From contig CAVWDM010000005.1 of assembly GCA_963753755.1 (NCBI GenBank), forward strand, positions 138,559 to 202,558: 64,000 bases of DNA, read 5' to 3'. The translations under genes and the position numbers were made by a program. The DNA comes from an uncultured Gammaproteobacteria bacterium. GTDB taxonomy: Bacteria > Pseudomonadota > Gammaproteobacteria > UBA9214. Under the pieces are notes generated by a model. The model was not told where the DNA came from, made no database searches, and was given only the letters and a program-made list of their open reading frames with translations. How positions within the stretch are numbered: the first letter of the stretch is position 1; each line of letters begins with the position of its first letter. Below, piece after piece: positions 9,158 to 42,316 of this stretch.

Positions 9158-11902
9158 TCAGGCCTTGTAGACCTTGATGGCGGCCTTCTTGAAGTCGGTC
9201 TCCTTCGACATCGGGCAGGTCACATCAAGGCACAGTTTGTTGACAAACACGGCCTCGTCAAAGAACGGTACGAAGGTATAGCCCTTCGCTGGCCGGTTGC
9301 GTCCCTGGGTCTCCACCACGGCCTTGACCTTGCCGCGGCGTGATTCCAGCCAGGCGATATCATTGCGCTGCAGGCCACGTTTTTTGGCGTCGTCCGGGTG
9401 CATGAAGATCACGGCCGTCGGCACGGCACGGTGCAACTCTGGTACCCGGCGGGTCATGGTGCCGGTGTGCCAGTGTTCCAGCACGCGGCCGGTGTTCAGC
9501 CACAGGTCGTAATTGCTGTCCGGTTGCTCCGGTGGCGCCGCATAGGGACGGAAGAAGATCTTTGCCTTGCTGGCCAGGCTGGTCTTCTCCTGGTTGGTGA
9601 CCTTGTCCAGGTCGCCACTCGGCAAGGCCTTGAGCGCCTTGCCGTAGAAGTCGAAGCCGCTGCCTTTCGCGCAATAGGGGTCATACTCTTCGTTGAAGCG
9701 CCACTGGGTTTCCTTGCCGTCGACGACCGGCCATTTCAGACCGCGCACATCGTCACCGTAGTAGACATCGAATGCCGCCAGGTCATGGGCATGTCCGACG
9801 CCAAACTGGCGGTATTCGTCGAACAGTGCCTTTTCCGGAAACCAGCCATCGCCGAGTTTCTCGGCCACGTGGTTGTCGTGTCCCTTGGCCACCGATTCAT
9901 CGGGCCACTTGACCTTGCGGTTGTCCGCGTTGGCGAACAGTACCTCGTAGAGGGTGTCATCGGGTGAGTAACCCATCTTCTGCGCCTCGGCCAGCACGCT
10001 GGGCAGCTTGCCATTATCGAAACCCTCGGCCTCGAGCCCCGGCACATTCTGCTCGCCCCAGACCTCCTTGAGCGTGAAGCGCTTGGAAAACTCCAGGCCC
10101 TGCCAGACATCACCCATGGCCTCGCCGGGCGGTGCCACCTGCTGCCGCCAGGCCTGGGTACGTCGTTCTGCATTGCCGTACAGGCCCCACTTCTCAAAGA
10201 TCATGGCGGTTGGCAGTATCAGGTCCGCCACCTTCGCCGAGACGGTGGGATAGGGATCGGACACCACAATGAAATTATCCATGTCGCGGGCTGCCTTGAT
10301 CCAGTGGTTGGCATTTGCGGTTGCCTGGAAGGGGTTGTTGACCTGTACCCAGGCCCACTTGATCTGACCGTCCTCGAGGTCGCGCATGATCTTGGTAATG
10401 TGGCTGCCGACCTTGGGATTGAGGGTGCTGGGCGGCAGTTTCCAGAGCTTCTCGCTGAATGCCCGGTGTGCCGGGATGGTGACCACGAGGTCAGCCGGCA
10501 GTCGATGGGCGAAGGTACCCACCTCACGTGCGGTACCGCAGGCGGAGGGCTGGCCGGTGAGCGAGAAGGCACCGTTGCCCGGCATGCACTGCTTGCCGAG
10601 CAGCAGGTGTATCGCATAGTTCTGCTCGTTGACCCAGCTGCCGCGGTAGTGCTGGTTGAAACCCATGGTCCAGAAGCTGACCACCTTGCGGTTCGGATCG
10701 ACATACAGCTCGGCCAGTTGCTTGAGTTTGCCCTTGTAGGTCTCCGGATCCTCGTCCGGATCACCCTTCGACAGTTGTGCCACGAAGTCCAGAGTGTAGG
10801 GCTCCACGCCCTTCTTGAAGTCCTCGTAGCTGATCATCCAGTGTGCAACCGGTTTCCTGGTGTTGTTCTGTTCCACCACTTCGCCCGCCTTTCTGCGCTG
10901 GCCGATGGCCTCATCCTTGTCGAGCGTCACCCTGAGCTCCTTGACCTGGATATCCTTCTCGGCCTCGAAACAGTACTTGTCTGTCGGGCGCATGCCGTAA
11001 CCGATATCATAGGGGCCGGTAGCAAACACGCAATGCTTGTTGACGAAGTCCTGGTTGACGGCATCGCGCTTGATGATCTCGCGCAGCAGGTAGTTCTGGA
11101 TGGCGAGGTCAGTACCCGGTTTGAAGATGATCTCGGTATCGGCGATGTCGGAGGTCTGGTTGCTCATGGTGGTCAGGTTGATGAGCTTGACGTTGTCATC
11201 CGTCAGCCGTCTATCGGAGACGCGTGCCCACAGGATCGGGTGACACTCGGCCATGTTGGCGCCCCAGGTGACAACGGTATCGGTGTGCTCGATGTCGTCG
11301 TAGTTACCGGCCGGTTCGTCGATGCCGAAGGTCTGGATGAAGCCCACCACGGCCGAGGCCATGCAGTGGCGTGCGTTGGGATCGATGTTGTTGCTGCGGA
11401 AACCGGCCTTCATCAGCTTCGCCGAGACATAGCCTTCCGGGATGGTGTACTGGCCGGAGCCGAAGATGGCGATGCCGTGTGGCCCCATTTCCCGGTAGGT
11501 CTTCTTGAACTGTTTTTCCATTTCGTCGAAGGCGCGTTCCCAGCTCACCGCCTGGAACTTGCCCTGCTTGTCGAACTTGCCGTCCGTCATGCGCATCAGT
11601 GGCTGGGTGAGACGGTCCTTGCCGTAGATGATCTTGCCGTTGAAGTAGCCCTTGATGCAGTTCAGCCCCCTGTTCACCGGTGCATCCGGGTCACCCTTGG
11701 TGGCGACGATGCGGCCGTCGCGGGTACCGACCATAATGCCGCAGCCGGTACCACAGAAGCGGCAGACGCCCTTGTCCCACTGTACTCCGGCCTCGGCCTC
11801 TTTAGATTTCGCCAGTGCGGCGGCGGGAATGGTGATGCCGGCGGCAGTGGCGGTGGCCGCCGCGGCACTGGTCTTGAGAAATTCTCTGCGTGTGACGTCC
11901 AT
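9158..11902 (-). CDS. napA: periplasmic nitrate reductase catalytic subunit NapA (Mo-bisMGD)
   Basis: 914 aa; twin-arginine signal ([22 protein letters not shown]); N-terminal CxxCxxxC...C FeS motif (CRFCGTGCG); Nap-type molybdopterin motifs ([15 protein letters not shown]). Confidence 0.9.
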
Positions 11903-11950: not shown

Positions 11951-12328
11951 CTACTCTTTTAAAAATGCGGGTACGTTATCCGTGTCCTCAAGATCCGCCG
12001 GAATGCCCTGCAGCAGTTCGCTGTCATCTTCAAAATTGTGGTAGGACATTTCCGCAAGGATGATGCCGGGCAGTGCCTGGATACGCTTCAGGCCATCGAC
12101 CTCGTCGCTGATGGTAGCGGCTTCCTGGGTGATGACGATACGGCCAGTGGACGCATCGATATGATGCACGTCGATACCGTCCAGCCCCTGCAGCTGCTCA
12201 ACCATGGATTCAACCCGCTGTGGGGAAACGACCACGAGGATGCCTGATATATTCATGTGCGGTAACTGCCCCCAGTCACTGTAGCAAATGATGTCGTTTT
12301 TATACGGGGTCTGGATGGCCAGGTTCAC
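11951..12328 (-). CDS. napD: NapA maturation chaperone NapD
   Basis: ~125-aa acidic protein directly upstream of napA, the conserved napD position; sequence is NapD-like. Confidence 0.7.
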   Translation of the reverse strand: MNLAIQTPYKNDIICYSDWGQLPHMNISGILVVVSPQRVESMVEQLQGLDGIDVHHIDASTGRIVITQEAATISDEVDGLKRIQALPGIILAEMSYHNFEDDSELLQGIPADLEDTDNVPAFLKE

Positions 12329-12379
12329 TCTTCCCCAAACGCCCTGATAAACTTATACCAAGATAATCAGCGTCACGAC

Positions 12380-12393
12380 TTGATTCAGGTCAA
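12380..12393. promoter_or_regulatory. FNR/Dnr-type binding site TTGATTCAGGTCAA (TTGAT-N4-GTCAA)
   Basis: Near-consensus CRP/FNR-family half-sites spaced N4. It sits ~50-65 nt upstream of the napD start, in the divergent intergenic region shared with the oxidase operon. Confidence 0.5.
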
Positions 12394-12741
12394 GAGTGGG
12401 CAGCACCGCACCGGCAGGACCGGTGCTGCCGGTGGCGCTTGAAAACCGGGTATGCACTCATGTCAGCATGGCATGCCAGCAGCAGGCGGTATCGAGGCGT
12501 TCACGCAAGAGCTGGTACTTCCACTTGAAATTCAAAGGAAAATTGTGGATTATCGAGTGGCGATTGTCACGGGGACGCCGCGATGGATAGCATGCGCATG
12601 GCTGTCCCGATAATAACCTCAAAGAAAATGCTTACCGCACATCATTTGAATTTCTGTGCCTTTTATCTTCCTGAATCACCCCGGTGACGGGACGGTGTCT
12701 GCATGTCTGAGGGTCACGCAATTCTGTCTAGGAGAAAATGA

Positions 12742-12894
12742 ATGAGTCAACTAACACCTGAAGAGGAGCAGAAAATCCTCAACAGTTCACCGACCGGGAC
12801 CTTTGCACTGCTGTTGCTGATCGGTGTGCTGCTCTTCGCCGGCTGGGCCTATATGTTTTTATTCATGTTTCTTGAAAACGGACCGGTGAGCTAG
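12742..12894 (+). CDS. 50-aa single-TM peptide; candidate ba3-type oxidase subunit IIa (CbaD-like)
   Basis: My own translation: MSQLTPEEEQKILNSSPTGTFALLLLIGVLLFAGWAYMFLFMFLENGPVS. An AGGAG sits 8 nt upstream and the gene lies immediately 5' of the CuA subunit gene. It is below the 60-aa cutoff of the ORF track. Confidence 0.45.
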   Translation: MSQLTPEEEQKILNSSPTGTFALLLLIGVLLFAGWAYMFLFMFLENGPVS

Positions 12895-12905
12895 GAGGCG
12901 TGGCA

Positions 12906-13430
12906 ATGTTTGGTGATCCCCTGAAAAGCATCTGCGAAGATTCACTGGAAAGAAAGTGGATCTGGATATCCCTGTTGCTGGCGTTCTTTATGGCCGGTAT
13001 GCTGGGTTTTTATGCGGTGGCCAGCAACATCCACCCGCCGAGCAATGTTGAAACCATTGACTCCTCGCGACTGCACCTGACGGAAGAATTTGCAGAGGAC
13101 AAGCTGGGAGTAACCACCAATGCGGATGGCAGTCTCACCGTTACCCTGGTGGCGGCCCGCTATGGTTTCTATCCACCGGTCATCGAAGTGCCGGCCGACA
13201 CGCCGGTGACCTTCCGCATCGCCAGCGCCGATGTGCTGCACGGTGTGCATGTGCCCTTTACCAACATGACCACCATGATCGTGCCGGGCTATATATCCGA
13301 GGTAAGGACGAGCTTTCCGCGCACCGGGGAGTTCTCCCTGCTGTGTAATGAATACTGCGGCCTCGGGCATGATTCCATGTGGTCGCGCCTGGTGGTGGTT
13401 CCTAAATCCGTGGGGGGGGCTTCATCATGA
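12906..13430 (+). CDS. heme-copper oxidase subunit II (CuA cupredoxin; ba3/sNOR-type, no cytochrome c domain)
   Basis: One N-terminal TM helix plus a cupredoxin domain with the CuA motif HGVHV...CNEYCGLGHDSM. AGGAGG RBS 7 nt upstream of the ATG at 12906. ATGA overlap with the subunit I gene. Confidence 0.8.
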   Translation: MFGDPLKSICEDSLERKWIWISLLLAFFMAGMLGFYAVASNIHPPSNVETIDSSRLHLTEEFAEDKLGVTTNADGSLTVTLVAARYGFYPPVIEVPADTPVTFRIASADVLHGVHVPFTNMTTMIVPGYISEVRTSFPRTGEFSLLCNEYCGLGHDSMWSRLVVVPKSVGGASS

Positions 13431-15050
13431 GCCGGTCAAATGCTGCCGGTATCAGCCTGGCAAGTATGTGGGTGGGTTTTACGGCCTTTGCCGTCGCGGC
13501 CCTGCTGGGTGTTTACCAGGTCATTGAAAGGATCGATCTGATCCCCGCGCTGCAATCGCCGGAACTGTATTTCGGCTCGGTGTCGACCCACGGGGTGCTG
13601 ATGGCGTTCGTGCTGACCACCTTCCTGGTGATGGGATATGGCTATTACACGGCGACCACCAGCCTTGATCAGGCGTTGTGGAACAAGCCACTGGCCTGGT
13701 TCGGTTTCTGGCTGGCCGTGATCGGTGTGCTGCTGGCGGCCGGGCCGCTGCTCACCGGTAATGCCTCGGTGCTGTATACCTTCTACCCGCCACTGCAAGC
13801 GCATCCGGCATTCTACCTCGGTGCCACGCTGCTGGTGGTGGGTTCCTGGGTGTGGTGCCTGGAGATGGTCATGATGATGACCATCTGGAAGAAGGCGCAC
13901 CCGGGTGAAACCGTGCCGCTGGCGATGTACGGCACCACGGCGAATGCCATTCTCTGGTTTATTACCAGTCTCGGGGTTGCCGCGGAAGTGCTGTTTCAAC
14001 TGCTTCCCTGGTCACTGGGGATTATCGAGACCGTCGACGTCGGCCTGGCGCGAACCCTGTTCTCCTGGACCCTGCACGCGATTGTGTACTTCTGGCTGTT
14101 CCCGGCCTACATCGCGCTGTACACCCTGTTGCCGAGTGCAGCGGGTGGCCGCTTGTTCAGTGACCAGATGGGGCGGCTGGCGTTTATCATGTTGCTGGTG
14201 TTTTCGGTGCCTATCGGTTTTCACCACCTGTACATGGATCCGTTTCAGGCGGCCGGCTGGAAGTTCCTGCACATGATGGGCACCTTCATGGTGGCCGTGC
14301 CAACCCTGATTACCGGTTTTACCATCATTGCCTCGCTGGAGATTGCCGGCAAGTTGCGTGGTGGCAAGGGGCTGTTTGGCTGGATTGGCGCGCTGCCCTG
14401 GGGTAATCCCATGGTGCTGGCGAGCCATACTGGCGATGCTGATGCTCACCTTCGGTGGCTTCGGCGGCATGATCAATGCCAGTTATGCCATGAACACCAT
14501 GGTGCATAACACCCAGTGGGTCACCGGCCACTTTCACCTCATCTTTGCAGGGACCACGGTGATCATGTACTTCGCGATTGCCTATACTCTGTGGCCGAAG
14601 ATGACGGGGCGAGCGCTGTATTCAACGCGCATGGCGTTGCATCAACTGTGGTTGTGGTTTGTCGGCATGTTGATCCTGACACTGCCCTGGCACCAGCTTG
14701 GACTGGCCGGCCAGCCACGGCGTATCTCGTCGACACCGTATGACGAATCCTTCGTGCAGGCATGGCTACCGGCCGGATCCGCCATGATCGTCGGTGGTGT
14801 CATCCTGTTTATCTCGGCGCTGATGCTGGTCTACAACCTGTTCAGGACGCATGGCAACGCCCGGGCGGAAGACAATCTTGAGGTCGAGTATGCCGAACCG
14901 CTGCATGCGATACAGCGCATGCCGCAGCTGATGAACAGCTTCGGTTTCTGGGTGCTGCTGGTGGTGGTGTACATGGTAGCCAGCTACGGTTATCCCATAG
15001 CACAGTTTTTCCTCATGGATACCTACGGTACTGTCCCATGGAGCATATGA
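13427..15050 (+). pseudogene. heme-copper oxidase subunit I (B-family / NOR-like), interrupted by a frameshift near 14410-14420
   Basis: Two overlapping ORFs in different frames (13427..14509 and 14328..15050) together give a ~540-aa subunit I (...HHLYMDPF..., ...WVTGHFHLIF..., ...GYPIAQFF...). Continuity is ...GNPMVLA|ILAMLMLTFGG..., implying a single 1-nt indel. Confidence 0.7.
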
Positions 15051-15718
15051 TCATGATGCGTTTATTTGCTGTATTTATCGGCGTGGTGGTGCTGATCCCG
15101 GCTGCCGGTGCCGAACCCTCTTCACAAGTGGCCTTTGACGTGGCCACGGTGCAGCTGTTGCGAACGGCGGACCCGGCACGTGGTGAGGCACTGGCAGCGG
15201 AGAGCAAGTGTTCCAAGTGTCATGGCGATAACGGTGTCTCGAATGATCCTGATGACGTCAACATTGCCGGGCTGCGTCCCAGCTATATCTACAAGCAGCT
15301 CAGCGATTACCGGGACGAAAATCGCGATGACCGCGACATGTTCAAACAGACACGTAACCTTGATAATCAGCAGCTGGCTGATCTGGCCGTCTGGTTTGCC
15401 GCGCAGCAACCGCTAGCGCCTGCCGCCGACCGCAATAGTGATCCCGCTATCTTGCGCCTCGTCTACCAGGGCGATCCTGAACGGCTGATCAAGGCCTGTG
15501 CCTCCTGTCACGGCCGCGATGGCCGCGGTGGCCAGTTCGATCACCCGGCACTGGCCGGCCAGTACCCGGAATACCTCATCTACACACTGACCGAGTTCAA
15601 GGAAGGTGACCGCAGCAATGATATCTATGCGCGCATGCGCAGTATCGCCGAGGTGCTCACCGAGGAGGAGATCGAGGGTCTGGCCGCCTACTACGGTGCC
15701 GCCGTGCCGGCGGAATAA
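15038..15718 (+). CDS. dihaem cytochrome c (c4-like), probable electron donor to the oxidase
   Basis: Signal peptide and two CxxCH motifs (CSKCH, CASCH). Overlaps the end of the subunit I gene. Confidence 0.7.
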   Translation: MEHMIMMRLFAVFIGVVVLIPAAGAEPSSQVAFDVATVQLLRTADPARGEALAAESKCSKCHGDNGVSNDPDDVNIAGLRPSYIYKQLSDYRDENRDDRDMFKQTRNLDNQQLADLAVWFAAQQPLAPAADRNSDPAILRLVYQGDPERLIKACASCHGRDGRGGQFDHPALAGQYPEYLIYTLTEFKEGDRSNDIYARMRSIAEVLTEEEIEGLAAYYGAAVPAE

Positions 15719-15799
15719 CGCCCGATCATTGATACCTTGAATACTGTCGCAGCGGACCGGGGCGGACGCGGTCCGCTGCGACAGTTTAGATTGTAAAGC

Positions 15800-18256
15800 A
15801 TGTCGACGGATGACGCGGAATCGCGCTGTTTTCATTGTGGCCTGCCGCTACCGGCTGCCGCACCGACACCGCGGCTGGAGGTGCTGGGCGAACCGCGTGC
15901 ATTCTGCTGTTATGGTTGCCATGCCGTGTGCAAGGCCATCTCTGATGCCGGCCTGGACGACTACTACCGGCATCGCACCGACCCTGCCGTATCCGCCAAC
16001 CGCGAGTTCGTGCCGGACTTCCTCAAGCAGGTGGAGCTGTTCGATCGCCCGGAGATCCAGCAGGATTTCGTCGTGCACGTCGGTGACAGCCGGGAAGCGG
16101 CCCTGTTGCTCGACAACATCCGCTGCCCTGCCTGCCTGTGGCTGAATGAACGGCACTTGCGCAGCCTCCCCGGGGTGCTCGACGTGCACATCGATGACAC
16201 CACGCAGCGTGCCCGCGTGCGCTGGGACCCGCAGACCATCCGGCTAAGCGAGATCCTGCGCGCCATTACCGACATTGGTTACATTGCCCATCCCTATGAC
16301 GCCACGCGCAGCGAACAACTCAACAGGCTGCGGCGCCGGCGCAGTACCGAGCGCCTGATATTCGCCGCTGCCATCGGCATGCTGGTGATGAATTTTTCAC
16401 TGGCCACCTATGTTATGGGTGAAACCGACGACGCGGGTGCGCTGCCGCTGTGGATTACGCTGGGACGCTGGACCAGCGTACTGCTGTCCGTGCTGCTGCT
16501 GGCCTATCCGGGCCAGGAGTTTTTCGCCGCGGCCTGGAATGATCTCAGGCATCGACGTCTGGGCATGGATATCCCCGTGGTGCTGGGTCTGTGTGCCGCG
16601 TTCATCGGCAGCCTGCAGGCCACGGTGACCGGGCACGGCGAGGTGTACTTTGATTCCATCGCCATGTTCATCTTCTTTCTGCTGCTGGCGCGGCGCTGGG
16701 AACTGCGCGGCAAGCTCAGTGCGGCCGACCGCCTGGAGCGACTGGCACGCATCACACCGCGCACGGCATCGCGACTGGATACGCAGGGTGCGGTGACCGA
16801 CGTTGCGGTTGATGAACTGGCCGTGGGCGACCTTATCCGGCTGCTGCCCGGGGAAACCCTGCCTGTGGACGGGACCGTGGTGACCGGCAGCAGCAGTTTT
16901 GATGAATCGCTGCTGACGGGCGAGGCGCAGCCGATCGTCAAGCAACCGGGTGACGCGCTGATTGCCGGCTCGGTGAACAGTGAACAACCGCTGACGATCC
17001 GGGTGACCCATACGCTGCAACATTCCGCCGTCAGTGAGATTCGGCAGCTGGTGGAACGGGGGCTGGAGCTACGCCCACGCTACGCGCTGCTGGCGGAACA
17101 GGTGGCGAGCGGGTTTGTCATAGTGCTGCTGCTGATCGCATCGGCAACCGCCGCCTACTGGCTGCTGACGGACCCGGGCAACTGGTTACCCAGTACCATT
17201 GCCGTGCTGATCGTAACCTGTCCCTGTGCGCTGGCACTGGCGACACCGGTGGCGCTGGCGGTCAGTGCCGGCCGCTTTATCGACATCGGTGTGTTACCTC
17301 TGCGGATGCGGGCACTGGATGCGCTGGCGTGCAGCGATCTGTTTGTATTTGACAAAACCGGTACCCTCACCACGGGGCAGCCGGCCATTGCCGCCGTGGT
17401 GCCGACCGCCGGCCTGGATGAAGACACCTGCCTGCGCCATGCGGCTGCGCTTGCCACCGAGTCGGCACACCCGGTGGCGCATGCCCTGCATCACGTCGTC
17501 GTGCCGCCGCAGATGGTCACCACGGCAGTGGTTAATGTACCGGGCGCCGGCATCCAGGCATCGATCGAGGGGCGTGAGTGGCGCTTCGGCAAACCCGATT
17601 TTGCAGCACACGGTGCTGACTATGACGAGCGCACCCGTGCGATCATTGCTGATGGGCGGGCGCGTGGACAGCTGGTCTCCGTACTGGCCAGTCCCGAGGG
17701 GGTGCAGGCTGTGATGACCTTTGCAGATCCGCTGCGGCCGGGTATCGAGGTGCTGTTAGCCGGCCTGAAAGACAGCGGCGTACAGCAGCTGGCAATACTC
17801 AGTGGTGATGCTCCTGACACGGTACTGAGACTGGCCAGGCAGCTGGGTATTGAAGAGGCACACGGCGGACTGTCACCGGCCGGCAAACTCGACTGGACGC
17901 GGGCGCAGCAGGGACAGGGGCGGCAACTGGCGATGATGGGTGACGGAATCAATGATGCCCCCACGCTGGCCGCCGCCGATGTGTCGATTTCATTTGCTGA
18001 TGCGACCGACCTGGCGAATGCCAGCAGTGATTTTCTCATACTGGGAGATGATGCCGGCGTGCTGGTGACGGCACGACAGCTTGCACGGCGTACGCGCCGC
18101 AATATCATGCAGAATTTTGCCTGGGCAGGCGCTTATAACCTGATTGCCGTGCCGTTTGCCGCTGCCGGCTGGATTCCACCCTGGGGCGCGGCACTGGGTA
18201 TGTCCTTCAGTTCCCTGTTCATTGTCATGAATGCGCTGCGATTAAGGCAAGGATAA
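15800..18256 (+). CDS. ccoI: copper-translocating P1B-type ATPase, CcoI/FixI-type
   Basis: N-terminal CxxC...CCxGC metal-binding region (CFHCGLP...CCYGCHAVC), TM CPC motif (TCPCALALATP), phosphorylation motif FDKTGTLT, GDGINDAP hinge. Confidence 0.85.
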   Translation: MSTDDAESRCFHCGLPLPAAAPTPRLEVLGEPRAFCCYGCHAVCKAISDAGLDDYYRHRTDPAVSANREFVPDFLKQVELFDRPEIQQDFVVHVGDSREAALLLDNIRCPACLWLNERHLRSLPGVLDVHIDDTTQRARVRWDPQTIRLSEILRAITDIGYIAHPYDATRSEQLNRLRRRRSTERLIFAAAIGMLVMNFSLATYVMGETDDAGALPLWITLGRWTSVLLSVLLLAYPGQEFFAAAWNDLRHRRLGMDIPVVLGLCAAFIGSLQATVTGHGEVYFDSIAMFIFFLLLARRWELRGKLSAADRLERLARITPRTASRLDTQGAVTDVAVDELAVGDLIRLLPGETLPVDGTVVTGSSSFDESLLTGEAQPIVKQPGDALIAGSVNSEQPLTIRVTHTLQHSAVSEIRQLVERGLELRPRYALLAEQVASGFVIVLLLIASATAAYWLLTDPGNWLPSTIAVLIVTCPCALALATPVALAVSAGRFIDIGVLPLRMRALDALACSDLFVFDKTGTLTTGQPAIAAVVPTAGLDEDTCLRHAAALATESAHPVAHALHHVVVPPQMVTTAVVNVPGAGIQASIEGREWRFGKPDFAAHGADYDERTRAIIADGRARGQLVSVLASPEGVQAVMTFADPLRPGIEVLLAGLKDSGVQQLAILSGDAPDTVLRLARQLGIEEAHGGLSPAGKLDWTRAQQGQGRQLAMMGDGINDAPTLAAADVSISFADATDLANASSDFLILGDDAGVLVTARQLARRTRRNIMQNFAWAGAYNLIAVPFAAAGWIPPWGAALGMSFSSLFIVMNALRLRQG

Positions 18257-18551: not shown

Positions 18552-19130
18552 ATGTCTGCAAGAAAAACACTCGCAGTGCTATTGGGGTCCGGTCTGTTGC
18601 TGGGTGCCGCCCACGTGTCAGCGGCACCGACCGCCACCATGCTGGCTGATACATGTGCCGGTTGTCATGGCACCGATGGTGCCAGCACGGGGCCAGCCAC
18701 ACCCTCGCTCGCCGGAATGTCGGAGACCTACATGGTCGATTCCATGAAGGCCTTCAAGAGCGGTGAACGTCACAGCACGGTCATGGGCCGTATCGCCAAG
18801 GGCTACAGTGACGAAGAGTTTCAGCTCATGGCCTCGGTGTTCGCCAAACAGCCGATTCCAGTAACCAGCCAGACAACGGATGCCGCCAAGGTGGCAGCCG
18901 GTGAGAAGTTATACGGCGATAACTGTGAAAAATGCCACGATGAAAAAGGTGGCCTGGCCGATGACGATGCCGGCATCCTCTACAGTCAATGGCTTCCCTA
19001 CCTGCAGTATTCCATGCAGGACTTCAAGGGTGATGCAAGAGAGATGCCCAAGAAGATGAAAAAGAAGGTCGACGCGCTTAGCGATGCCGAGATTGAAGCA
19101 TTGTTGCAGTTCTTCGCCAGTCAACAGTAG
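18552..19130 (+). CDS. fccA: flavocytochrome c sulfide dehydrogenase, dihaem cytochrome subunit
   Basis: Signal peptide and two CxxCH motifs (CAGCH, CEKCH). Immediately upstream of the FccB flavoprotein gene. Confidence 0.75.
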   Translation: MSARKTLAVLLGSGLLLGAAHVSAAPTATMLADTCAGCHGTDGASTGPATPSLAGMSETYMVDSMKAFKSGERHSTVMGRIAKGYSDEEFQLMASVFAKQPIPVTSQTTDAAKVAAGEKLYGDNCEKCHDEKGGLADDDAGILYSQWLPYLQYSMQDFKGDAREMPKKMKKKVDALSDAEIEALLQFFASQQ

Positions 19131-19145
19131 GGGAGATAAAGAATC

Positions 19146-20423
19146 ATGAACAAGATTAATCGCAGAAGTTTCATCAAGATCGCGGGTGGTGCCACGGCTG
19201 CCAGCGCGATCGGTTTCCCCATGATCGCCGCAGCAGCTGGCAAGAAGCAGGTCGTTATCGTCGGTGGCGGTACCGCGGGCGCGACCGCCGCCAAGTACAT
19301 CCGCCGGGCTGATGCCACGGTCGAGGTGACACTGATCGAGCCGAACAAGGATTACTATACCTGTTACCTGAGTAACGAGGTCATTGGTGGCGGTCGCAAG
19401 CTGGATAGCCTCAAGTTCGGCTACGACGGTCTGCGCAAGCACGGCGTCACGGTGGTACACGATACCGTCACCGCGATCGATGCCAAGGGACAGAAGGTGA
19501 CGACCCAGGGTGGCAAGAGCTTCAGCTATGACCGCTGTATTGTCGCCCCCGGTATTTCCTTTGTTGACAATATCGAAGGCTATGACGCGGCCGCCATGGA
19601 GAAGATGCCGCATGCCTGGAAGGCGGGTGCACAGACTGCACTGCTGCGCAAGCAGCTGGAAGCCATGGCTGACGGTGGCACGGTGTTGATTGCACCGCCA
19701 CCGAATCCCTTCCGCTGTCCGCCCGGCCCATACGAACGTGCCTGCCAGATCGCCAGCTACCTGAAGAGCCACAAGCCGAAATCAAAGGTCCTCATCATTG
19801 ATAAAAAGGACTCGTTCTCCAAGCAGGGCTTGTTCACACAGGCCTGGGACCGGCACTACAAGGGCATGATTGAATGGGTCAAGGCAGTTGATACCGGCGG
19901 CGGCGTACAGAGCGTCGATGCCAAGACCGGCACGGTCTCCACGGAGTTCGAGGAGTACAAGCCGGCCGTTGCCAATATTATCCCGGCACAGGTCGCCGGT
20001 AGTATTGCCAAGACAGCCGGTTTGACCGATGACAGCGGCTGGTGCCCGGTTACCGGCAAGACCTTCGAGTCGACCATCCACAAGGGTATTCACGTGATCG
20101 GCGATGCAGCCATCCAGGCACCGTTGCCGAAGTCCGGCTATGCTGCCAACTCCGAGGCCAAGGTTGTCGCTGCCGCGGTCGTGGATCTCGTCAACGGTCG
20201 CGAACCGGGTACGCCGTCCTGGGTCAATACCTGTTACAGCATCGTGGCCCCGAATGACGGTATATCGGTCGCCATGGTCTACAACCTGGTAGACGGCAAG
20301 GTCGCGAAGGTCGAGGGTTCCGGTGGCCTGACGCCGATGGACAGCTCGCCGGAAGAGCGTGCCCGTGAGGTGCAGTATGCCTACAGCTGGTTCAATAACA
20401 TCACCAGCGATATTTTTGACTGA
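19146..20423 (+). CDS. fccB: flavocytochrome c sulfide dehydrogenase flavoprotein subunit (FCSD/SQR-family FAD protein)
   Basis: Tat signal ([17 protein letters not shown]), FAD-binding [16 protein letters not shown], and FCSD-like sequence throughout. Confidence 0.8.
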
Positions 20424-20453
20424 TAGCGGTTGCTGACTGGCACAAAGTAAACG

Positions 20454-20484
20454 GGGTCCGCAGCTGCGGGCCCCGTCGTTTAAG
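20454..20484 (+). terminator. GC-rich hairpin (GGGGTCCGCAG/CTGCGGGCCCC) between fccB and soxY; possible terminator or attenuator
   Basis: Approximately 10-bp imperfect inverted repeat followed by a weak T tract (GTCGTTT). Confidence 0.4.
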
Positions 20485-20495
20485 GAGTCGAATGG

Positions 20496-20969
20496 ATGAA
20501 TACAAACATGAAGCGTCGGCTGTTCCTGAAGGCCTCTGTGGCGGCCGGGACGGTCGGGATGGCTGCTGGTGCCGGTCTGTTGATGCCCAGGACCGTGCTG
20601 GCCGCCTGGAACGAGGCCGCATTCAAGGCCGATTCCATGGGCGCTGCCCTGAAGGCAGGCCTGGGCAGCGATGCCGCGACGGAGTCCGCCGAGGTGAAGC
20701 TGGATGTGCCTTCTAATCCGGAGAATGGTGCCGTGGTACCGGTTGCAGTGAACACCACGCTGGCCGGCGTACAATCGATCGCGATACTGGTGGAAAAAAA
20801 TCCCAGCCCGCTGTGCGGCGTCTTTAATCTCGGCAAGCGCATGAAGCCGCAGGTCTCCATTCGTGTGAAGGTGAGCGAGTCGGCCGATATCATTGCCGTG
20901 GTGAAAGCGGGGGACGCGCTCTACAGCGCGCGGACATCCGTCACGGTCACAGTCGGCGGCTGTGGGTGA
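20496..20969 (+). CDS. soxY: thiosulfate-oxidation carrier protein SoxY
   Basis: Tat signal (MKRRLFLKASVAAGTVGMAAGAG) and a C-terminal ...VTVGGCG swinging-arm cysteine motif. Confidence 0.85.
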   Translation: MNTNMKRRLFLKASVAAGTVGMAAGAGLLMPRTVLAAWNEAAFKADSMGAALKAGLGSDAATESAEVKLDVPSNPENGAVVPVAVNTTLAGVQSIAILVEKNPSPLCGVFNLGKRMKPQVSIRVKVSESADIIAVVKAGDALYSARTSVTVTVGGCG

Positions 20970-21024
20970 TGAGCGGCGTCGTGTAACGAATTCAGAGATA
21001 CAATATTTCGAGGTATAGCACACC

Positions 21025-21342
21025 ATGGCCAGCAAGAGCATAAAGTTGAAAGCCAAAGCGGAGAATGGAGAAACCACCGTCAAGGCACTGATCAAACACC
21101 CGATGGAGACCGGTCGACGCAAAGACAAGGACAGTGGCAAGCTGGTATCGAGTCACTACATTCAGGAGGTCAGCTGCAGTTACCAGGGCGAACCGGTGAT
21201 GACGGCCGAGTGGGGGCCGACTATCGCAAAGAATCCGTTCCTGTCTTTCACGTTCTCGGGTGGCGCCGCGGGTGAGGAAATCGAGATGAGCTGGAAGGAC
21301 AACACGGGCGACAGCGACTCGGCCAGCGCGACTATCACTTAG
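21025..21342 (+). CDS. soxZ: thiosulfate-oxidation carrier protein SoxZ
   Basis: ~105-aa SoxZ-like sequence immediately after soxY. Confidence 0.8.
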   Translation: MASKSIKLKAKAENGETTVKALIKHPMETGRRKDKDSGKLVSSHYIQEVSCSYQGEPVMTAEWGPTIAKNPFLSFTFSGGAAGEEIEMSWKDNTGDSDSASATIT

Positions 21343-21549
21343 CTGGCAGGGCCTGGTTTGATAGTGTCGGCGGGCAAACCGCCGTCACGGTTCTGCAACC
21401 TGGCTGTCAAACACAGCCGGGAAATTGATTTCCGCAATCCCGCCTATCAGCAGATAAATATTAAAAAATTGATTCATGTTAAGGCATGAGTTGCGGGCGT
21501 GTTTAAAATCCTCTGTTTGTGACTACCCGTCGTGTGACGAATCATTTTT

Positions 21550-21565
21550 ATGACAGATTTGTCAT
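21550..21565. promoter_or_regulatory. 16-bp palindrome ATGACAGATTTGTCAT in an AT-rich promoter region upstream of the octahaem cytochrome gene
   Basis: Near-perfect inverted repeat (ATGACA-N4-TGTCAT) ~120 nt upstream of the start codon, inside an unusually AT-rich intergenic stretch (21343-21685). Confidence 0.4.
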
Positions 21566-21685
21566 CTTGTAACGCACAGTTTATTGCCTACACTGGTACT
21601 AGTGTGGGTACAAGAAATTAATAATCAATACACGTTCACGGCGGTGTGCGCACTGCCGGATCAACTAACGTAAACATACAGGGGG

Positions 21686-23116
21686 ATGAATCCAATGGAT
21701 AAGAAAAAGTGGTTATGGGGCCTCGGTTTTCTCTGTCTCGTATTTCAGTCGGTGGCCATGGCTGCCCTCAGCAACCAGACACTTCCGATCAAGGAACTAT
21801 CGGAGGAAAGCAAGGAATGTATGAGCTGTCATCAGAAGTACAATCCCGGCATCACGCAGGAGTGGGGCAGGAGCAAGCACTATGGTGCCAACGTCGGCTG
21901 CTACGAATGTCACGCCGCTGAAAAAGGTGATGTGGATGCCTACATACATGATGACAAAAAGGTCAAGAAATCGATTTCCATCCTGGTGACACCAAAGGAC
22001 TGCGGCGTCTGCCACGAAAAGGCTGCGAAGGAAATGACCAGTTCCCGTCATGCCAAGGCTGGACATATCCTGGATTCACTGGATAACCTCCTCGCTGAAG
22101 TCGTCGAGGGTAATAACGCCATGATCACCCCCGGATTCCCGGGTGGCAACTCGGCCGCCGCGGTCAATGGCTGCTGGCAATGTCATGGTTCAAAGGTCAA
22201 GGTGCTGGAAGACGGTCAGCTGGATCCGGCCACCTACCCAAATACCGGTATCGGACGTATCAACCCGGACGGGTCTGAAGGCTCATGCTCGGCCTGCCAC
22301 AGTCGCCATCAATTCTCCACTGCACTGGCGCGCGAACCCGATAACTGCGGCAAGTGTCACCTCGGTCCTGATCATCCGCAGAAGGAGATCTACGAGGAAT
22401 CCAAGCACGGAATTGCCTTCAAGGCTTACAGGGACGAGATGAACCTGGACAGTTCCAAGTGGGTCGTCGGCGTGGATTACACGGCCGCACCTACCTGTGC
22501 GACCTGCCACATGGGCGCCACCAGGAAACAGCCGTCCAGCCACAATGTCGGTGATCGCATCAGCTGGACGAACCGTCCGCCGATATCGGTACGCCCCGAG
22601 GTGATGGATGCCAAGATGGGCCTGGAAAGTGCCAACCTCAAATGGGACACGCGTCGGGCAAACATGAAGGACGTGTGTAATGCGTGTCACAGCGAGGATC
22701 ATACGGAGGACTTCTACGTCCAGTACGATGCGCTGATCGAACTCTACAACGAGAAATTCGCCAAGCCCGGCAAGGCACTCATGGAGACAGCCAAGCCTCT
22801 GCTGAAACCGGCCAAGTTCAGCAACAAGGTTGACTGGACCTGGTTCGAACTCTGGCATCACGAGGGTCGCCGTGCGCGCATGGCTGCTTCCATGCAGGCA
22901 CCGGATTACACCCACTGGCATGGTACCTATGACCTGGCCAAGCACTTCTATACCAAGATGGTTCCGGAGCTGGAGGACCTGGTCAACGAGAACCTTGATT
23001 CCAAGGATCCAGTTAAGGCCAAGGCGGCCAAGGATCTGCAGGCCCAGATGATCGAGCTCTTTAACACCGATAACCACAAGTGGTATATCGGCAAGCGGGA
23101 CAAGGCAAAGAAATAG
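21686..23116 (+). CDS. octahaem c-type cytochrome, HAO/Otr (hydroxylamine oxidoreductase / octahaem tetrathionate reductase) family
   Basis: Signal peptide and eight CxxCH motifs (CMSCH, CYECH, CGVCH, CWQCH, CSACH, CGKCH, CATCH, CNACH) in 476 aa. Confidence 0.7.
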   Translation: MNPMDKKKWLWGLGFLCLVFQSVAMAALSNQTLPIKELSEESKECMSCHQKYNPGITQEWGRSKHYGANVGCYECHAAEKGDVDAYIHDDKKVKKSISILVTPKDCGVCHEKAAKEMTSSRHAKAGHILDSLDNLLAEVVEGNNAMITPGFPGGNSAAAVNGCWQCHGSKVKVLEDGQLDPATYPNTGIGRINPDGSEGSCSACHSRHQFSTALAREPDNCGKCHLGPDHPQKEIYEESKHGIAFKAYRDEMNLDSSKWVVGVDYTAAPTCATCHMGATRKQPSSHNVGDRISWTNRPPISVRPEVMDAKMGLESANLKWDTRRANMKDVCNACHSEDHTEDFYVQYDALIELYNEKFAKPGKALMETAKPLLKPAKFSNKVDWTWFELWHHEGRRARMAASMQAPDYTHWHGTYDLAKHFYTKMVPELEDLVNENLDSKDPVKAKAAKDLQAQMIELFNTDNHKWYIGKRDKAKK

Positions 23117-23940: not shown

Positions 23941-24306
23941 TCATGTAATGAAGTTTCCTGGGAACAACAGGCGACTCGGGTAACCGGGTTGCAGCAGGAA
24001 ACCCTCGACATAATGGGCATAGTCCTCGCGTACACCACGTACCAGGATAATCCAGGAAATGTAGACACCCGGGAGTAGCAACACCAGTATCAGCGGTAAA
24101 TAAGTGACCTTCAATGACCACGCTGCCACCGGCAGCAGGTACAGGGGCCAGCTGAACAATGTGCCGCGCAGTCCGTGTTTCAGGCCGAGTACCACGCGTG
24201 CGATGTGTCGACGCAGACGCTGCGTGCGCGAATTGTAGACACTCAGGAACACCCCGCGCTCGAAGTCATTGTGTATATCCGAGAGGCGTTTCGATGATTG
24301 CTGCAT
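23941..24306 (-). CDS. small membrane-flanked (bacterial PH-like) domain protein
   Basis: ATG 10 nt after the stop of the FeS-membrane-anchor gene; ~120 aa with two TM segments. The listed ORF has an N-terminal extension that overlaps the upstream gene. Confidence 0.4.
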   Translation of the reverse strand: MQQSSKRLSDIHNDFERGVFLSVYNSRTQRLRRHIARVVLGLKHGLRGTLFSWPLYLLPVAAWSLKVTYLPLILVLLLPGVYISWIILVRGVREDYAHYVEGFLLQPGYPSRLLFPGNFIT

Positions 24307-24316
24307 GATCTTCAGG

Positions 24317-26158
24317 TCAGTGGCAATCCGGTAATACACCCACCTGCGGCATGTTGGCGAGGCCGGTCTCGCGGGCATGTTCTTCAAAACCCCTGTTACG
24401 CCAGAAAAAGGCACCGGGCAGGGTGGTTGGAATGACCAGGGCGTAAAACAGGGCGCGGCCAATCAGTGCGCTGCCGACAATACTGATTGCAGTGACTAGC
24501 CACATGAACAGCGCGGTGTTGCCGTCGGGGTTTAGCAGGCTGATTAGCCCCAGCATCAGCATGGACAGTCCAATACCGGTGTTGCGCAGCAGGTAGGTGT
24601 TTCCGAATTTCGTTCTTTGATCATAGTGCGAGGCCGCGCCTTCACCGCCACCACACCGCAGGTCGCGCGCATGGTAGTACAAACCAACGGCTTCCAGCGC
24701 CAGGCCGCACAGCATAAGCCCGGCCAACCCATGCACGGTGCTTGACCAGGGCAGACCCTGCAACAGTTGAGCGGCCATGTATACCAGCACCACCAGCAGT
24801 GGCCCCAGTGCCAGCATGCTGCCATAGAATGAGGTCAGTACCTGCCAGTGGTTCCAGTAGGGCCGGGCGGGTATGCGGTAGATGCTGTGCATGAAATACA
24901 GTGCCGCGATCCCCGCGATGACCGCACCCCAGCCGCATAGCTGTGCCAGCGCGTTGCTCAACCCGGCTGGCAGCCATGTAAACAGCATGGGCAGGCCGCT
25001 TAACAGCGTATAGGCACCGAGGAAGTTGTAGAACACGGCGATGCCGGCGACCTCGCGGCTCACCGGTGAATGACGCAGATTATTAAATGCACGGTAGAAA
25101 CGATGCGGGCGACCCAGGTGCAGGGTCGACATCACCAGTGCCAGTGTCTGTATGCTGATTAATCCAAACAGCAATAACGGCCGGGCGACCGGGTGGTTGG
25201 CCATGCTCAGCATTTCAACGCCCACTAGTGGGCCGATAAACAGAGTAATAAAGGCACCAATGACCGCCTGTGAAACCAGTGTGAAGATCACCAGCGGGTC
25301 TTCGCGGGTACGCAGTTTTATCAGGTTCCATGCACGGCCGGCTCCTGATTCGTCGACCTTGGGTTTGTAGGCGCCGCCCGGTCGCTGTTCGTCACGTTCG
25401 TAGCGCAGGGGCATGCTGTCGGTGCGTTTCATTTCACGAGGCAGACTGCGGGTTTGCTGAAAACGGATATTCGGATGGGTGATCTCCGGCGTTGGAAACC
25501 CCGGTATCTGTGTTTCCAGTTGATCGCGGTTCTCCGGCGTGGTCTCGATGATGCCGAAGTCCAGTGCACCGGCGAGGCAGGCCGATGCGCAGGCCGGTTT
25601 CAGGCCGACCTCGAGCCGGTCAACGCACATGTTGCACTTCGACACGTGACCGGCGGCGCTGTCCAGTTGTGGTGCATTGTAGGGGCACACCCAGGTGCAG
25701 TAGCCGCAACCGAAACAGATATCCGGATCCTGCAGTACGGCGCCGTACTCGGCGAACTTGGTGTAGGCCCGTGTCGGGCAGCCCTTCAGGCACACCGGGT
25801 CGTCGCAATGGTTGCAGGCCATGGAGATATTCATGCGCTGGTAAGCGGGGTAGGAACCCCCTTCCACGTAGCCGACGGCACGGAAGGCAATATGCGCCGG
25901 CAGGTCGTTCTTCTCGGAACAGGCCGCCTCGCAGGCATGGCAGGCAATGCAGTTGTCGGCATTGAAATAAAAACCGTGCTGCTTGTAGCGGTTCGGGTTG
26001 TCCGACACGCTACTGTCGCCGTTGATGTTCAGTGACTGGCCGCGTAGCGGGTCACCTGGCGGTACGGTTTCGGTGGATCTGCCGTAGCGATTGGTCTGCG
26101 GTGCTTCCACGTCAGGCACAAAGGCGTAGGCGGGTTCCTTGGGACGTGCTTCAAACAT
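24317..26158 (-). CDS. fusion of a DmsB-like 4x[4Fe-4S] ferredoxin subunit with a DmsC/NrfD-like integral membrane anchor
   Basis: N-terminal half has four ferredoxin Cys clusters (CIACHACEAAC, CNHCDDPVCLKGCP, CFGCGYCTWVCP, CNMCVDR...CASAC). C-terminal half has ~8 TM helices typical of DMSO-reductase anchor subunits. It lies directly downstream of the molybdoenzyme gene. Confidence 0.7.
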   Translation of the reverse strand: MFEARPKEPAYAFVPDVEAPQTNRYGRSTETVPPGDPLRGQSLNINGDSSVSDNPNRYKQHGFYFNADNCIACHACEAACSEKNDLPAHIAFRAVGYVEGGSYPAYQRMNISMACNHCDDPVCLKGCPTRAYTKFAEYGAVLQDPDICFGCGYCTWVCPYNAPQLDSAAGHVSKCNMCVDRLEVGLKPACASACLAGALDFGIIETTPENRDQLETQIPGFPTPEITHPNIRFQQTRSLPREMKRTDSMPLRYERDEQRPGGAYKPKVDESGAGRAWNLIKLRTREDPLVIFTLVSQAVIGAFITLFIGPLVGVEMLSMANHPVARPLLLFGLISIQTLALVMSTLHLGRPHRFYRAFNNLRHSPVSREVAGIAVFYNFLGAYTLLSGLPMLFTWLPAGLSNALAQLCGWGAVIAGIAALYFMHSIYRIPARPYWNHWQVLTSFYGSMLALGPLLVVLVYMAAQLLQGLPWSSTVHGLAGLMLCGLALEAVGLYYHARDLRCGGGEGAASHYDQRTKFGNTYLLRNTGIGLSMLMLGLISLLNPDGNTALFMWLVTAISIVGSALIGRALFYALVIPTTLPGAFFWRNRGFEEHARETGLANMPQVGVLPDCH

Positions 26159-28481: not shown

Positions 28482-28561
28482 ATCGCGGACGCGTTCCGCT
28501 CCTGCAGGTGCATCGGTTTATACAGGAGCGCATCGCATGCGCGTTATGTTGGTAAATAAAA

Positions 28562-28891
28562 TTATGCAGCAGCCTCGTTGCTCGACAGGGCCAGGAATAC
28601 CCGGCCGTTCTCGACGCGGGTGGCGTAGGTGTTGGTGCATCCCTCGTCCGGGCCAAGTGCCTCGCCACTGGCGAGATCGATCTTCCAGTTATGCAGCGGG
28701 CAGGTCACGGAGGTGCCGTGCACGATGCCCTGCGACAGCGGGCCCTTCTGATGCGGGCATTCATCCTTGATGGCGAATACCTCGTCGCCAGAAGTGCGAA
28801 ACAGGGCAATGTTGACAGTGTCTGTTTTCAGTACCCGTGCACCCAGCCTCGGGATGTCCTCCAGTTTTGCAATTTCAGTCCAGTCGTTCAT
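28562..28891 (-). CDS. nirD: nitrite reductase small subunit NirD (Rieske-type)
   Basis: 109 aa with the Rieske motif CPH...CPLH (ECPHQKG...CPLHNW). Confidence 0.85.
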   Translation of the reverse strand: MNDWTEIAKLEDIPRLGARVLKTDTVNIALFRTSGDEVFAIKDECPHQKGPLSQGIVHGTSVTCPLHNWKIDLASGEALGPDEGCTNTYATRVENGRVFLALSSNEAAA

Positions 28892-29157
28892 TGGTTATAC
28901 CCCGGGTAAATATCTGTCGCAGACGACGCAGAGAACACGGCGATTATGAGTGCAGGTTCTTTTTCGGCCGGCGGGTAAACCCGGGTTGCCCGGTTTCCGA
29001 AAAACGCTGGATAGCCGCCATCGCGGTGATGACGTGTTGTGCAGAATCCGGGTGCCCGGATGTCATGAAGTCGTATTCCTGCAAGCGCAGTTGCAGTTGC
29101 TCATCGTATTCTTTATCCATCGTTATTACCTCTGTGTTGTCTGTGGCGTAAACTCGT

Positions 29158-34882: not shown

Positions 34883-34884
34883 GA

Positions 34885-39292: not shown

Positions 39293-39370
39293 TCAGTACA
39301 TGCCGTTGGCCATTGGCCCGCACGCCACCCCGTGTGCGGGCCTTTTTTAAATGAGCGAGTAGAGGGTGAT

Positions 39371-40337: not shown

Positions 40338-40381
40338 TGCCGAAGCGGCGTGCCACAGAATCAGATTTATTAAGGGAGTGA

Positions 40382-41891: not shown

Positions 41892-42077
41892 ATGAGCATG
41901 AAAGGCATGCAGCCACAAATGACCGAGTTCGGTGACTGCCTCAGCGAGTTGACTGATGTGGGTCCGTTGGGTGGTGCTGTACTGACTAATGAAGTCAAAA
42001 AAGGAAATCTGAGAGCCAAGAAGTATGGCTCGAAGGTGATCGTTCTGCCCTACGACTACAGGGTTTTCCTTGAGTGA
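41892..42077 (+). CDS. excisionase/AlpA-like HTH DNA-binding protein
   Basis: 61 aa; ...LSELTDVGPLGGAVLTNEVKKGNLRAKKYGSKVIVLPYDYRVFLE resembles Xis/MerR-type excisionase domains (…G.L.A.K.G.KWRI…FLE). Confidence 0.45.
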   Translation: MSMKGMQPQMTEFGDCLSELTDVGPLGGAVLTNEVKKGNLRAKKYGSKVIVLPYDYRVFLE

Positions 42078-42316
42078 CTGCCTGATGCACAGGTGGAAGC
42101 CGTGCCAGACACACGGGCGGAAGCACTGTCAGCTACGCGGGCAAGAGGCGGAGGGAAGAGAAGTCGCTTCAGTGAATATTTCATTGTTGTTTCTTCTTCA
42201 TTGTCCATATGAAAAATTAGAAACATGACAATGCAAGCACATGAATTGGATGTTGTTTTCCTGTTCTTTATCCGCTTCGCGCTCATCATGGATGCGCTGA
42301 TTAGTGTTAACAGGCC

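Follow-up and report, generated by a model that had tools for sequence, protein, structure and literature searches.

A predicted ba3-type oxygen reductase operon with a cytochrome c4 and a CcoI-type copper ATPase in a sulfur-oxidising gammaproteobacterium

Organisation of the locus

Back to back with a nap operon, the window (the whole stretch of 64,000 nucleotides that was analysed) carries genes for a CuA-containing haem-copper enzyme, and the question is whether this enzyme reduces oxygen or, as a partner of Nap, nitric oxide. On the plus strand, a cbaD-like gene (12742–12894) for a 50-aa peptide with one transmembrane helix is followed by cbaB for the CuA subunit II (from 12900 or 12906 to 13430; 176 or 174 aa), by cbaA for subunit I (13427–15050, written as two overlapping frames, 13427–14509 and 14328–15050), by a gene for a dihaem cytochrome (from 15038 or 15047 to 15718) and by a P1B-type ATPase gene (15800–18256). 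Directly 3' of the ATPase gene, on the same strand, lie fccA and fccB (18552–20423; Pfam FCSD_central and FCSD-flav_bind) for flavocytochrome c sulfide dehydrogenase. Upstream and divergent, on the minus strand, are napD (11951–12328, with ATG 12256 as the likely start) and napA (9158–11902). The first-pass annotation had listed the five genes of the operon in this layout, and all five were found where it had placed them. The cbaDBA, cytochrome and ATPase genes appear to be translationally coupled across most of the operon. From the homologies described below, the enzyme is very likely a cytochrome c:O2 oxidoreductase of the B family (ba3-like, 'b(o/a)3-type') with three subunits, whose genes, cbaD-cbaB-cbaA, are co-transcribed with those for a cytochrome c4 and a CcoI/FixI-type (CopA2) ATPase. 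An Rfam search of the operon region and of the whole window returned no RNA elements, no tRNA genes were found, and a scan for promoters and terminators gave matches no more frequently than expected from shuffled sequence.

The oxidase subunits

The two cbaA frames match positions 2–297 and 309–436 of the 436 positions of the Pfam COX1 profile. Removal of base 14423 restores a protein of 540 aa, which aligns over its full length with hundreds of intact 540-aa homologues (up to 91–93% identity; 91% for P0001). More than 100 of these, at 81–91% identity, are named 'b(o/a)3-type cytochrome-c oxidase subunit 1' in their sources. The closest solved structure is subunit I of the Thermus ba3 oxidase (E 1e-118, 42% identity). 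The haem and CuB ligands H55, H370, H368, H217, H266 and H267 (two for the low-spin haem, one for the high-spin haem and three for CuB) are kept in 80/80 homologues, as are the ba3 positions H72, H384, H386, H233, H282, H283, Y237, Y244, Y248, S261 and T312. The stretch H217-A-I-V-Y221 aligns with H233-P-I-V-Y237 of ba3, with the tyrosine present in all 80 homologues; the covalent His-Tyr bond itself is a prediction. K-path residues in subunit I are Y228, Y232, S245, T293, T296 and T299. The position of ba3 S309 (T293 here) is Thr in 78 and Ser in 2 of the 80 homologues, so that a hydroxyl is retained, and ba3 T315 is retained in 77/80. The Glu of the D-channel is missing, with HAIVY here and HPIVY in ba3, that is, Ile at the position taken by Glu in GHPEV.

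Subunit II has a COX2 domain (Pfam) with the CuA motif CNEYCGLGHDSM and is without a cytochrome domain; it matches Thermus ba3 subunit II with an E value of 1e-28. The likely start of cbaB is ATG 12906, because the AGGAGG at 12893–12898 is too near GTG 12900. The CuA ligands H114, C149, C153, H157 and M160 are conserved in 79/79 subunit II homologues, and so is Glu17, the counterpart of the K-path residue II-E15 of ba3.

The 50-aa peptide has a single hydrophobic stretch, and its gene is preceded by an AGGAG ribosome-binding site. Homologous small open reading frames lie 5' of the subunit II gene in 77 loci, with P17, G19, T20, W35 and G47 invariant. The peptide gave no matches in Pfam, even at E 10, or in NCBIfam, and its identity was taken from a profile of 28 such peptides searched against the PDB; the top match was Thermus ba3 subunit IIa (E 0.0011). 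On this profile evidence the peptide is predicted to be a homologue of ba3 subunit IIa, which bears out the analogy with ba3 that the first-pass annotation had drawn. The features expected of a B-family ba3-type enzyme, namely the ligands, the tyrosine, a single K-path, a CuA subunit and a IIa peptide, were thus all found at the level of sequence.

Oxygen or nitric oxide as substrate

The gene order had left two activities in play, a B-family oxygen reductase and a CuA-containing NO reductase of the sNOR kind. The sNOR, eNOR, gNOR, nNOR and bNOR families are defined by the missing active-site tyrosine (PMC11214002), and sNOR is also without S309 and carries one more conserved Glu near the K-path. 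The CuA subunit and the kinship with the B family are found in sNOR too, and the position back to back with nap, with an FNR-like box in between, would suit an enzyme that partners Nap in denitrification. Such an enzyme is nevertheless highly improbable here: Y221 (Y237 of ba3) is invariant, the three CuB histidines are present, a hydroxyl occupies the S309 position, the nearest solved structure is a ba3 oxidase, and the linkage to nap is limited to a few close relatives. The first-pass annotation had named the cross-link motif and the K-path as the features that should decide, and both are kept, together with the CuB and haem ligands, in the 80 homologues. By the tyrosine criterion the sNOR alternative is refuted; a dedicated NO reductase was rejected on the active-site residues, and the alignment of subunit I favours the oxygen reductase. 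The enzyme may still contribute in a small way to NO handling, because B-family oxidases reduce NO at a low level as a side activity (PMC11214002).

The regulatory argument for denitrification was followed in the napD-cbaD intergenic region. The FNR/CRP-type palindrome TTGATTCAGGTCAA is present at 12380–12393, as the first-pass annotation had noted, and nap is indeed divergent. The palindrome is the sole FNR-like match in the window; 0.24 matches were expected and at least one was seen in 15 of 100 shuffles, so that the box alone is not beyond chance. The related loci L003 and L005 have a comparable box in the corresponding intergenic region, and L001 (where NapD is called), L002 and L004 have a degenerate one. 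In the window the likely start of napD is about 130 bp away from the box and the oxidase operon 355 bp, and a function for nap is more likely than one for the oxidase. A consensus scan gave a candidate sigma-70 promoter for the oxidase operon, TTGAAA-17-GATTAT (12525–12553, plus strand), with the -35 element in the inverted repeat TTGAA-N-TTCAA. Four loci, namely the window, L002, L004 and L007, share this promoter-like block, which lies about 190 bp 5' of the first oxidase gene. Adjacency to nap was found in 7 of 46 non-methanotroph loci by a strict count (8 loci in a looser table), in the closest relatives only. Since nap adjacency is rare, the box is nearer napD and non-significant, and a separate promoter-like block precedes the operon, the proposed link with denitrification is weak.

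The extra base in cbaA

As written, cbaA allows no full-length subunit I. The single-nucleotide indel that the first-pass annotation had suspected at about 14410–14420 was located by DNA alignment 3 nucleotides beyond that interval: the window reads GCG-A-GCC where the relative L001 (91% identity) reads GCG-GCC, with one extra A at 14423 on the plus strand. Full-length subunit I homologues taken from the loci are uninterrupted in 79/79 cases, including L001–L003 (88–91% identity). The junction pattern, with or without the extra base, had no matches in genome_contigs and metagenome_contigs, and exact-sequence look-ups for subunit II (with both possible starts), FccB and SoxZ gave no same-strain sequence for comparison. 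Codon-position GC was too unspecific to detect frameshifts by itself.

A sequence error is probably the cause, because the part of cbaA 3' of the frameshift shows no decay and nirB, in the same window, has four indels and is likewise undecayed. The dN/dS values 3' of the site are 0.08–0.10 versus 0.108 for the intact pair L001–L002, and 2 of 193 conserved columns deviate. In nirB there are four 1-nt indels (three insertions and one deletion); when repaired, it is 92% identical to intact NirB and deviates in 1 of 460 conserved columns. A nasA-like gene in the window has two frame changes. A true mutation, with cbaA as a recently inactivated pseudogene and the ba3-type oxidase lost from the strain, is doubtful but deserves weight. 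Technical indels usually fall in homopolymers, and the extra A lies outside any; the other long open reading frames of the window are intact, so that the assembly is not uniformly error-ridden, and the remaining indels cluster about 12–17 kb from the cbaA site. Any inactivation would, however, have to be very recent, as selection is unrelaxed 3' of the site, and an undecayed nirB with four indels, together with the nasA-like frame changes, is hard to explain biologically and typical of sequence errors like the one in cbaA.

The purifying selection on both reading frames could also be reconciled with programmed +1 ribosomal frameshifting or transcriptional slippage, by which full-length subunit I would still be made. 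We rejected this possibility, whose probability we consider negligible: the homologous genes are uninterrupted, also in the close relatives, and the site is without a slippery run, stop or rare codon, while the zero frame runs on for 29 codons. With a sequence error as the preferred explanation, the apparent cbaA pseudogene is probably a product of assembly, and no claims of gene loss should rest on it.

Cytochrome c4 and copper ATPase

The cytochrome gene overlaps the cbaA stop with an ATGA start at 15047; ATG 15038 is an alternative. Its product has a signal peptide, a pair of CxxCH motifs and two Cytochrom_C stretches (Pfam), and residues 45–219 match the cytochrome c4 structure 6q2u in the PDB (E 5e-23). 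A cytochrome c4 is a periplasmic protein of about 20 kDa that combines two class I c-type haem domains, and this is the predicted build of the dihaem protein, which is therefore assigned to the c4 type on sequence grounds. The c4 gene is immediately 3' of the subunit I gene in each of the 74 loci with enough flank.

The ATPase has the N-terminal domain PF12156 (E 4e-23) followed by HMA, E1-E2_ATPase and Hydrolase domains, and is recognised by the models TIGR01511 and TIGR01525. Those full-length matches that are annotated belong to ccoNOQP-(ccoG)-fixH-[ATPase]-ccoS clusters. The FixI-type N-terminal domain and the cco/fix context of the matches support the first-pass assignment, and the protein is predicted to be a CopA2/CcoI/FixI-type Cu(I)-exporting pump. 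CopA2 pumps supply copper to cuproenzymes, and CcoI/FixI is needed for oxidase metallation, with a high affinity and a low turnover (PMC7558416). A literature search on PF12156 returned nothing.

Conservation and proposed mechanism

About 80 loci keep the gene order IIa-II-I-c4. In sulfur oxidisers the ATPase gene and fccAB accompany it, with fccB present in 19 of the 27 non-methanotroph loci whose downstream flank is 6.5 kb or longer; methanotroph loci are without the ATPase gene and fccAB.

Homology, ligand sets and synteny are read from sequence, and from these we infer how electrons travel, what the pump does and how the operon is regulated. Cytochrome c4 would be reduced by the periplasmic chain, through bc1 and probably also through the adjacent flavocytochrome c sulfide dehydrogenase, and hand the electrons to CuA of subunit II. 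By way of the low-spin haem they would then reach the active site of subunit I, made up of the high-spin haem, CuB and Tyr, for the reduction of O2 to water, with protons supplied by the single K-path analogue. The ATPase would export Cu(I) to the periplasm for metallation of CuB and/or CuA.

A more speculative proposal, which we think rather unlikely as it stands, is that cbaDBA, c4, the CcoI-like copper pump and fccAB form one conserved module in sulfur-oxidising Gammaproteobacteria, in which flavocytochrome c sulfide oxidation feeds c-type cytochromes and these a sulfide-tolerant, high-affinity ba3 oxidase loaded with copper by a dedicated CopA2 pump. If this were true, CcoI-type pumps would serve other oxidases besides those of the cbb3 type. 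The linkage of a B-family oxidase, c4, a CcoI-type pump and fccAB in any case offers a modest lead on O2 respiration amid sulfide. As to annotation the matter is settled: the locus belongs with the oxygen reductases and not with the NO reductases when the potential of this organism for respiration or denitrification is deduced. By its sequence it appears to be an ordinary ba3-type operon of a sulfur-oxidising gammaproteobacterium, and of a well-known kind.

Comparison with known systems

A counterpart of known structure is the ba3 oxidase of Thermus thermophilus (CbaA, CbaB and CbaD; PDB 1EHK and 1XME), which has the same three subunits including the single-helix IIa, the same haem, CuB and CuA ligands, His-Tyr motif and K-path including Glu15 of subunit II, and likewise no cytochrome domain in subunit II. 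The identity of subunit I is only 42%, however, and the IIa peptide of the window has a 15-residue acidic N-terminal extension. The gammaproteobacterial family differs from Thermus ba3 by S309 to Thr, D372 to Asn and W229 to Ser or Ala, and the operon of the window adds the genes for cytochrome c4 and the CcoI-type ATPase.

Closer are the gammaproteobacterial 'b(o/a)3-type cytochrome-c oxidase' clusters, which share IIa-II-I-c4 and have subunits I that are 62–93% identical; they are found in the Solemya velum gill symbiont, in Thiogranum and other sulfur-oxidiser MAGs, and in Methylobacter and Methylovulum. The window differs by the one extra base in subunit I, and it shares the divergent nap genes with its closest relatives only. 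The ATPase resembles CcoI/FixI of the ccoGHIS/fixGHIS clusters in its Cys-rich PF12156 N-terminus, HMA domain, CPC and DKTGT motifs and the Cu(I) signatures YN...P and MSxSS. It is, however, just 34–37% identical to the FixI/CcoI genes checked, is without adjoining ccoG, ccoH or ccoS, and has a B-family oxidase as its partner, whereas the partner there is a cbb3 (C-family) oxidase.

The putative NO reductases of the sNOR family (Murali et al. 2024) are likewise derived from the B family, with a CuA subunit and with polar residues conserved around the K-path, but they have lost the tyrosine and S309 and gained a Glu, whereas the enzyme of the window keeps the tyrosine and the hydroxyl. A ba3-type oxidase proposed to be insensitive to sulfide and tied to sulfide oxidation has been described in Methylacidiphilum fumariolicum SolV (PMC10205796); what it has in common with the enzyme of the window is the association with sulfide oxidation. 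In SolV this association consists of co-induction with SQR, whereas in the family studied here it consists of the conserved adjacency of fccAB.

Composition of the oxidase operon

The gene content was assessed from the ORF list for 9-22 kb and from Pfam domains. On the forward strand the operon starts with a 50-aa ORF (12742-12894), followed by a 176-aa ORF for subunit II (12900-13430; COX2 domain) and by two overlapping ORFs of 360 aa (13427-14509) and 240 aa (14328-15050), which match positions 2-297 and 309-436, respectively, of the 436-position COX1 profile. Since these are successive stretches of the profile, the two ORFs are halves of one gene, encoding subunit I. A 226-aa dihaem cytochrome (15038-15718; two cytochrome c domains) and an 818-aa ATPase (15800-18256; E1-E2_ATPase, Hydrolase, HMA and PF12156) complete the set, which agrees with the genes described in the first-pass annotation. 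napD and napA lie upstream and are divergent.

Subunit II matches the ba3 subunit II (E 1e-28), and residues H114, C149, C153, H157 and M160, together with the Glu at the K-path entrance, are kept in 79/79 homologues. The 50-aa peptide had no match in Pfam or NCBIfam. In 77 loci a homologous small ORF lies ahead of subunit II, with P17, G19, T20, W35 and G47 invariant. The top PDB match of a profile built from 28 of these peptides was subunit IIa of ba3 (E 0.0011), spanning the entire 34-residue chain. With subunit I, subunit II and the peptide all matching ba3 counterparts, the operon is cbaD-cbaB-cbaA.

Subunit I is of the oxygen-reductase type

Among solved structures, subunit I is closest to the ba3 oxidase of Thermus thermophilus (E 1e-118), followed by 7DEG, another entry of the ba3 type (E 2e-86); the A family gives far weaker matches (E 1e-16 and worse). 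In the alignment with the Thermus protein (42% identity) every catalytic residue is kept. H72, H233, H282, H283, H384 and H386 (ba3 numbering), the cross-link tyrosine position Y237 and the K-path residues Y244, Y248, S261 and T312 are present in 80/80 family members. The position of ba3 S309 is occupied by Thr, and T315 is retained in 77/80. Where A-family oxidases have the D-channel Glu, subunit I has Ile, as does ba3. Two further substitutions were observed: ba3 W229 is Ser or Ala across the whole gammaproteobacterial family (S213 here; a neighbouring Trp is retained), and D372 is Asn in 79/80 members (N356 here).

An sNOR-like nitric oxide reductase had been left open as an alternative identity. 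Absence of the active-site tyrosine is a defining trait of sNOR, eNOR, gNOR, nNOR and bNOR, and sNOR additionally lacks S309 and carries a different conserved Glu (Murali et al. 2024, PMC11214002). Both the tyrosine and a hydroxyl at the S309 position are retained in the window protein and in all 79 homologues, which excludes sNOR and refutes this alternative by the test set for it at first pass. B-family oxidases are known to have a weak NO-reductase side activity (PMC11214002), but this does not make the window oxidase a denitrification enzyme.

An apparent single-base frameshift in cbaA

The apparent 1-nt indel in subunit I was confirmed and located by DNA alignment with L001, the closest relative with available DNA (subunit I 91% identical): there is one extra A at 14423 (GCG-A-GCC versus GCG-GCC). 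Its removal yields a 540-aa subunit I, 100% of which is covered in alignments with more than 100 intact proteins of 540 aa (81-91% identity); a fragment from a Thiogranum MAG is 93% identical. The repaired protein deviates in 2 of 193 conserved columns (at least 97% conservation among 79 homologues), compared with 0-15 in intact homologues. Downstream of the frameshift, dN/dS was 0.08-0.10 against L001 and a second homologous locus, L002, and 0.108 for the intact pair L001-L002. There is thus no sign of decay, and the lesion is either very recent or not real. Exact-sequence look-ups and scans of genome and metagenome contigs found no same-strain sequence for comparison.

A second and more telling case in the window is nirB, for the large subunit of the NADH nitrite reductase (29161-31592, reverse strand). 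It is broken into four frames by 1-nt insertions at ~30864, ~30280 and ~29989 and a 1-nt deletion at ~30086, as placed by alignment to the DNA of a homologue, none of them in a long homopolymer. After four single-base corrections the gene encodes an 812-aa NirB with 92% identity, across the full length, to an intact NirB of 811 aa; the corrected protein deviates in 1 of 460 conserved columns, the median of intact homologues. Natural decay would hardly produce four indels without accompanying substitutions, and the nirB lesions are therefore most likely sequence errors. The extra A in cbaA, likewise a 1-nt insertion that is not in a homopolymer, is on these comparisons probably an artefact of sequencing or assembly. 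We regard a real, recent mutation as the less likely reading. That the frameshift is overcome by recoding is scarcely credible.

The adjacent nasA-like molybdopterin oxidoreductase gene (26271-28517, reverse strand) is split over three frames (28071-28517, 26980-28215 and 26271-27452), and thus contains two frame changes. A nirD-like Rieske ORF (28565-28894) appears intact. In 23941-26158 (reverse strand) Fer4_11 and DmsC-like domains are fused in a 613-aa protein. Its gene shares 146 bp with the next ORF downstream (173 aa, no family match), possibly another frame problem.

The nap-cbaD intergenic region

nap adjoins the oxidase operon only in the closest relatives (7 of 46 non-methanotroph loci by a strict count; 8 loci in a looser table). 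An FNR-like box at 12380-12393 is the sole match in the window and is not significant by itself; five relatives have related boxes in the corresponding intergenic region. It had been taken as shared by nap and the oxidase. Its presence was upheld. The box is ~130 bp from the likely start of napD and 355 bp from that of cbaD, upstream of both; we infer that it belongs to nap, and joint control of the oxidase operon is hypothetical. Four loci (the window, L002, L004 and L007) share a conserved promoter-like block (TTGAAA-17-GATTAT; 12525-12553 in the window), ~190 bp upstream of cbaD. Its -35 element lies inside an inverted repeat, TTGAA-N-TTCAA, a possible binding site for a regulator. No RNA family and no tRNA were found in the operon region or the whole window. 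The napD-cbaD spacer, 0.3-0.5 kb elsewhere, is 2.4 kb in L023 (4600-7064) and 0.9 kb in L004 (6280-7219), two relatives in which the divergent operons are thus separated by an insertion.

Neighbouring genes, cytochrome c4 and copper pump

The oxidase cluster is followed at 18552-23116 by fccA, fccB, soxY, soxZ and a gene for a 476-aa multihaem cytochrome. fccAB (flavocytochrome c sulfide dehydrogenase), directly after the ATPase gene, keeps this adjacency in most sulfur-oxidiser relatives (fccB in 19 of the 27 non-methanotroph loci with enough flank) and is missing in methanotroph relatives. Further along, 32912-36318 and 37883-41263 hold a second flavoprotein resembling NirB (656 aa, lacking a NIR_SIR domain) and then a 477-aa multihaem cytochrome, after which an NrtA-like binding protein, a permease and an ABC ATPase form what looks like a nitrate uptake set. 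A DabA/DabB-type inorganic carbon transporter pair (48927-53103, reverse strand) fits a chemolithoautotroph. The stretch ~42000-46000 has a G+C content of 47-48%, against ~60% elsewhere in the window, and may be acquired DNA; within it lie the gene of a Cu/Zn superoxide dismutase (43571-44308) and an ORF (42317-42922) that has no Pfam match.

ba3-type oxidases of thiotrophs and methanotrophs are already annotated and discussed, and the sole peculiarity of this locus is the frameshift, which is probably technical. As a pointer to sulfide-tolerant aerobic respiration, the conserved neighbourhood of oxidase, cytochrome c4, CcoI-type pump and fccAB is of modest value.

The structures that the dihaem cytochrome matches are of cytochrome c4 (E 5e-23), and its N-terminus resembles a signal peptide. 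The start codon of its gene and the stop codon of subunit I overlap in an ATGA, and the gene directly follows subunit I in 74/74 loci with enough flank; the cytochrome is presumably the dedicated electron donor of the oxidase. Of 46 non-methanotroph loci, 37 have the ATPase gene; all 35 methanotroph-like loci lack it. The protein carries a FixI-type N-terminal domain and Cu(I) signatures, and its annotated full-length matches in a plasmid collection sit in ccoNOQP-(ccoG)-fixH-[ATPase]-ccoS clusters, which supports the CcoI-type assignment made at first pass. In cuproenzyme assembly, Cu(I) is delivered by CopA2/CcoI pumps (PMC7558416). Unlike the pumps of CcoI/FixI clusters, that of the window is linked to a B-family oxidase, without adjoining ccoG, ccoH or ccoS.
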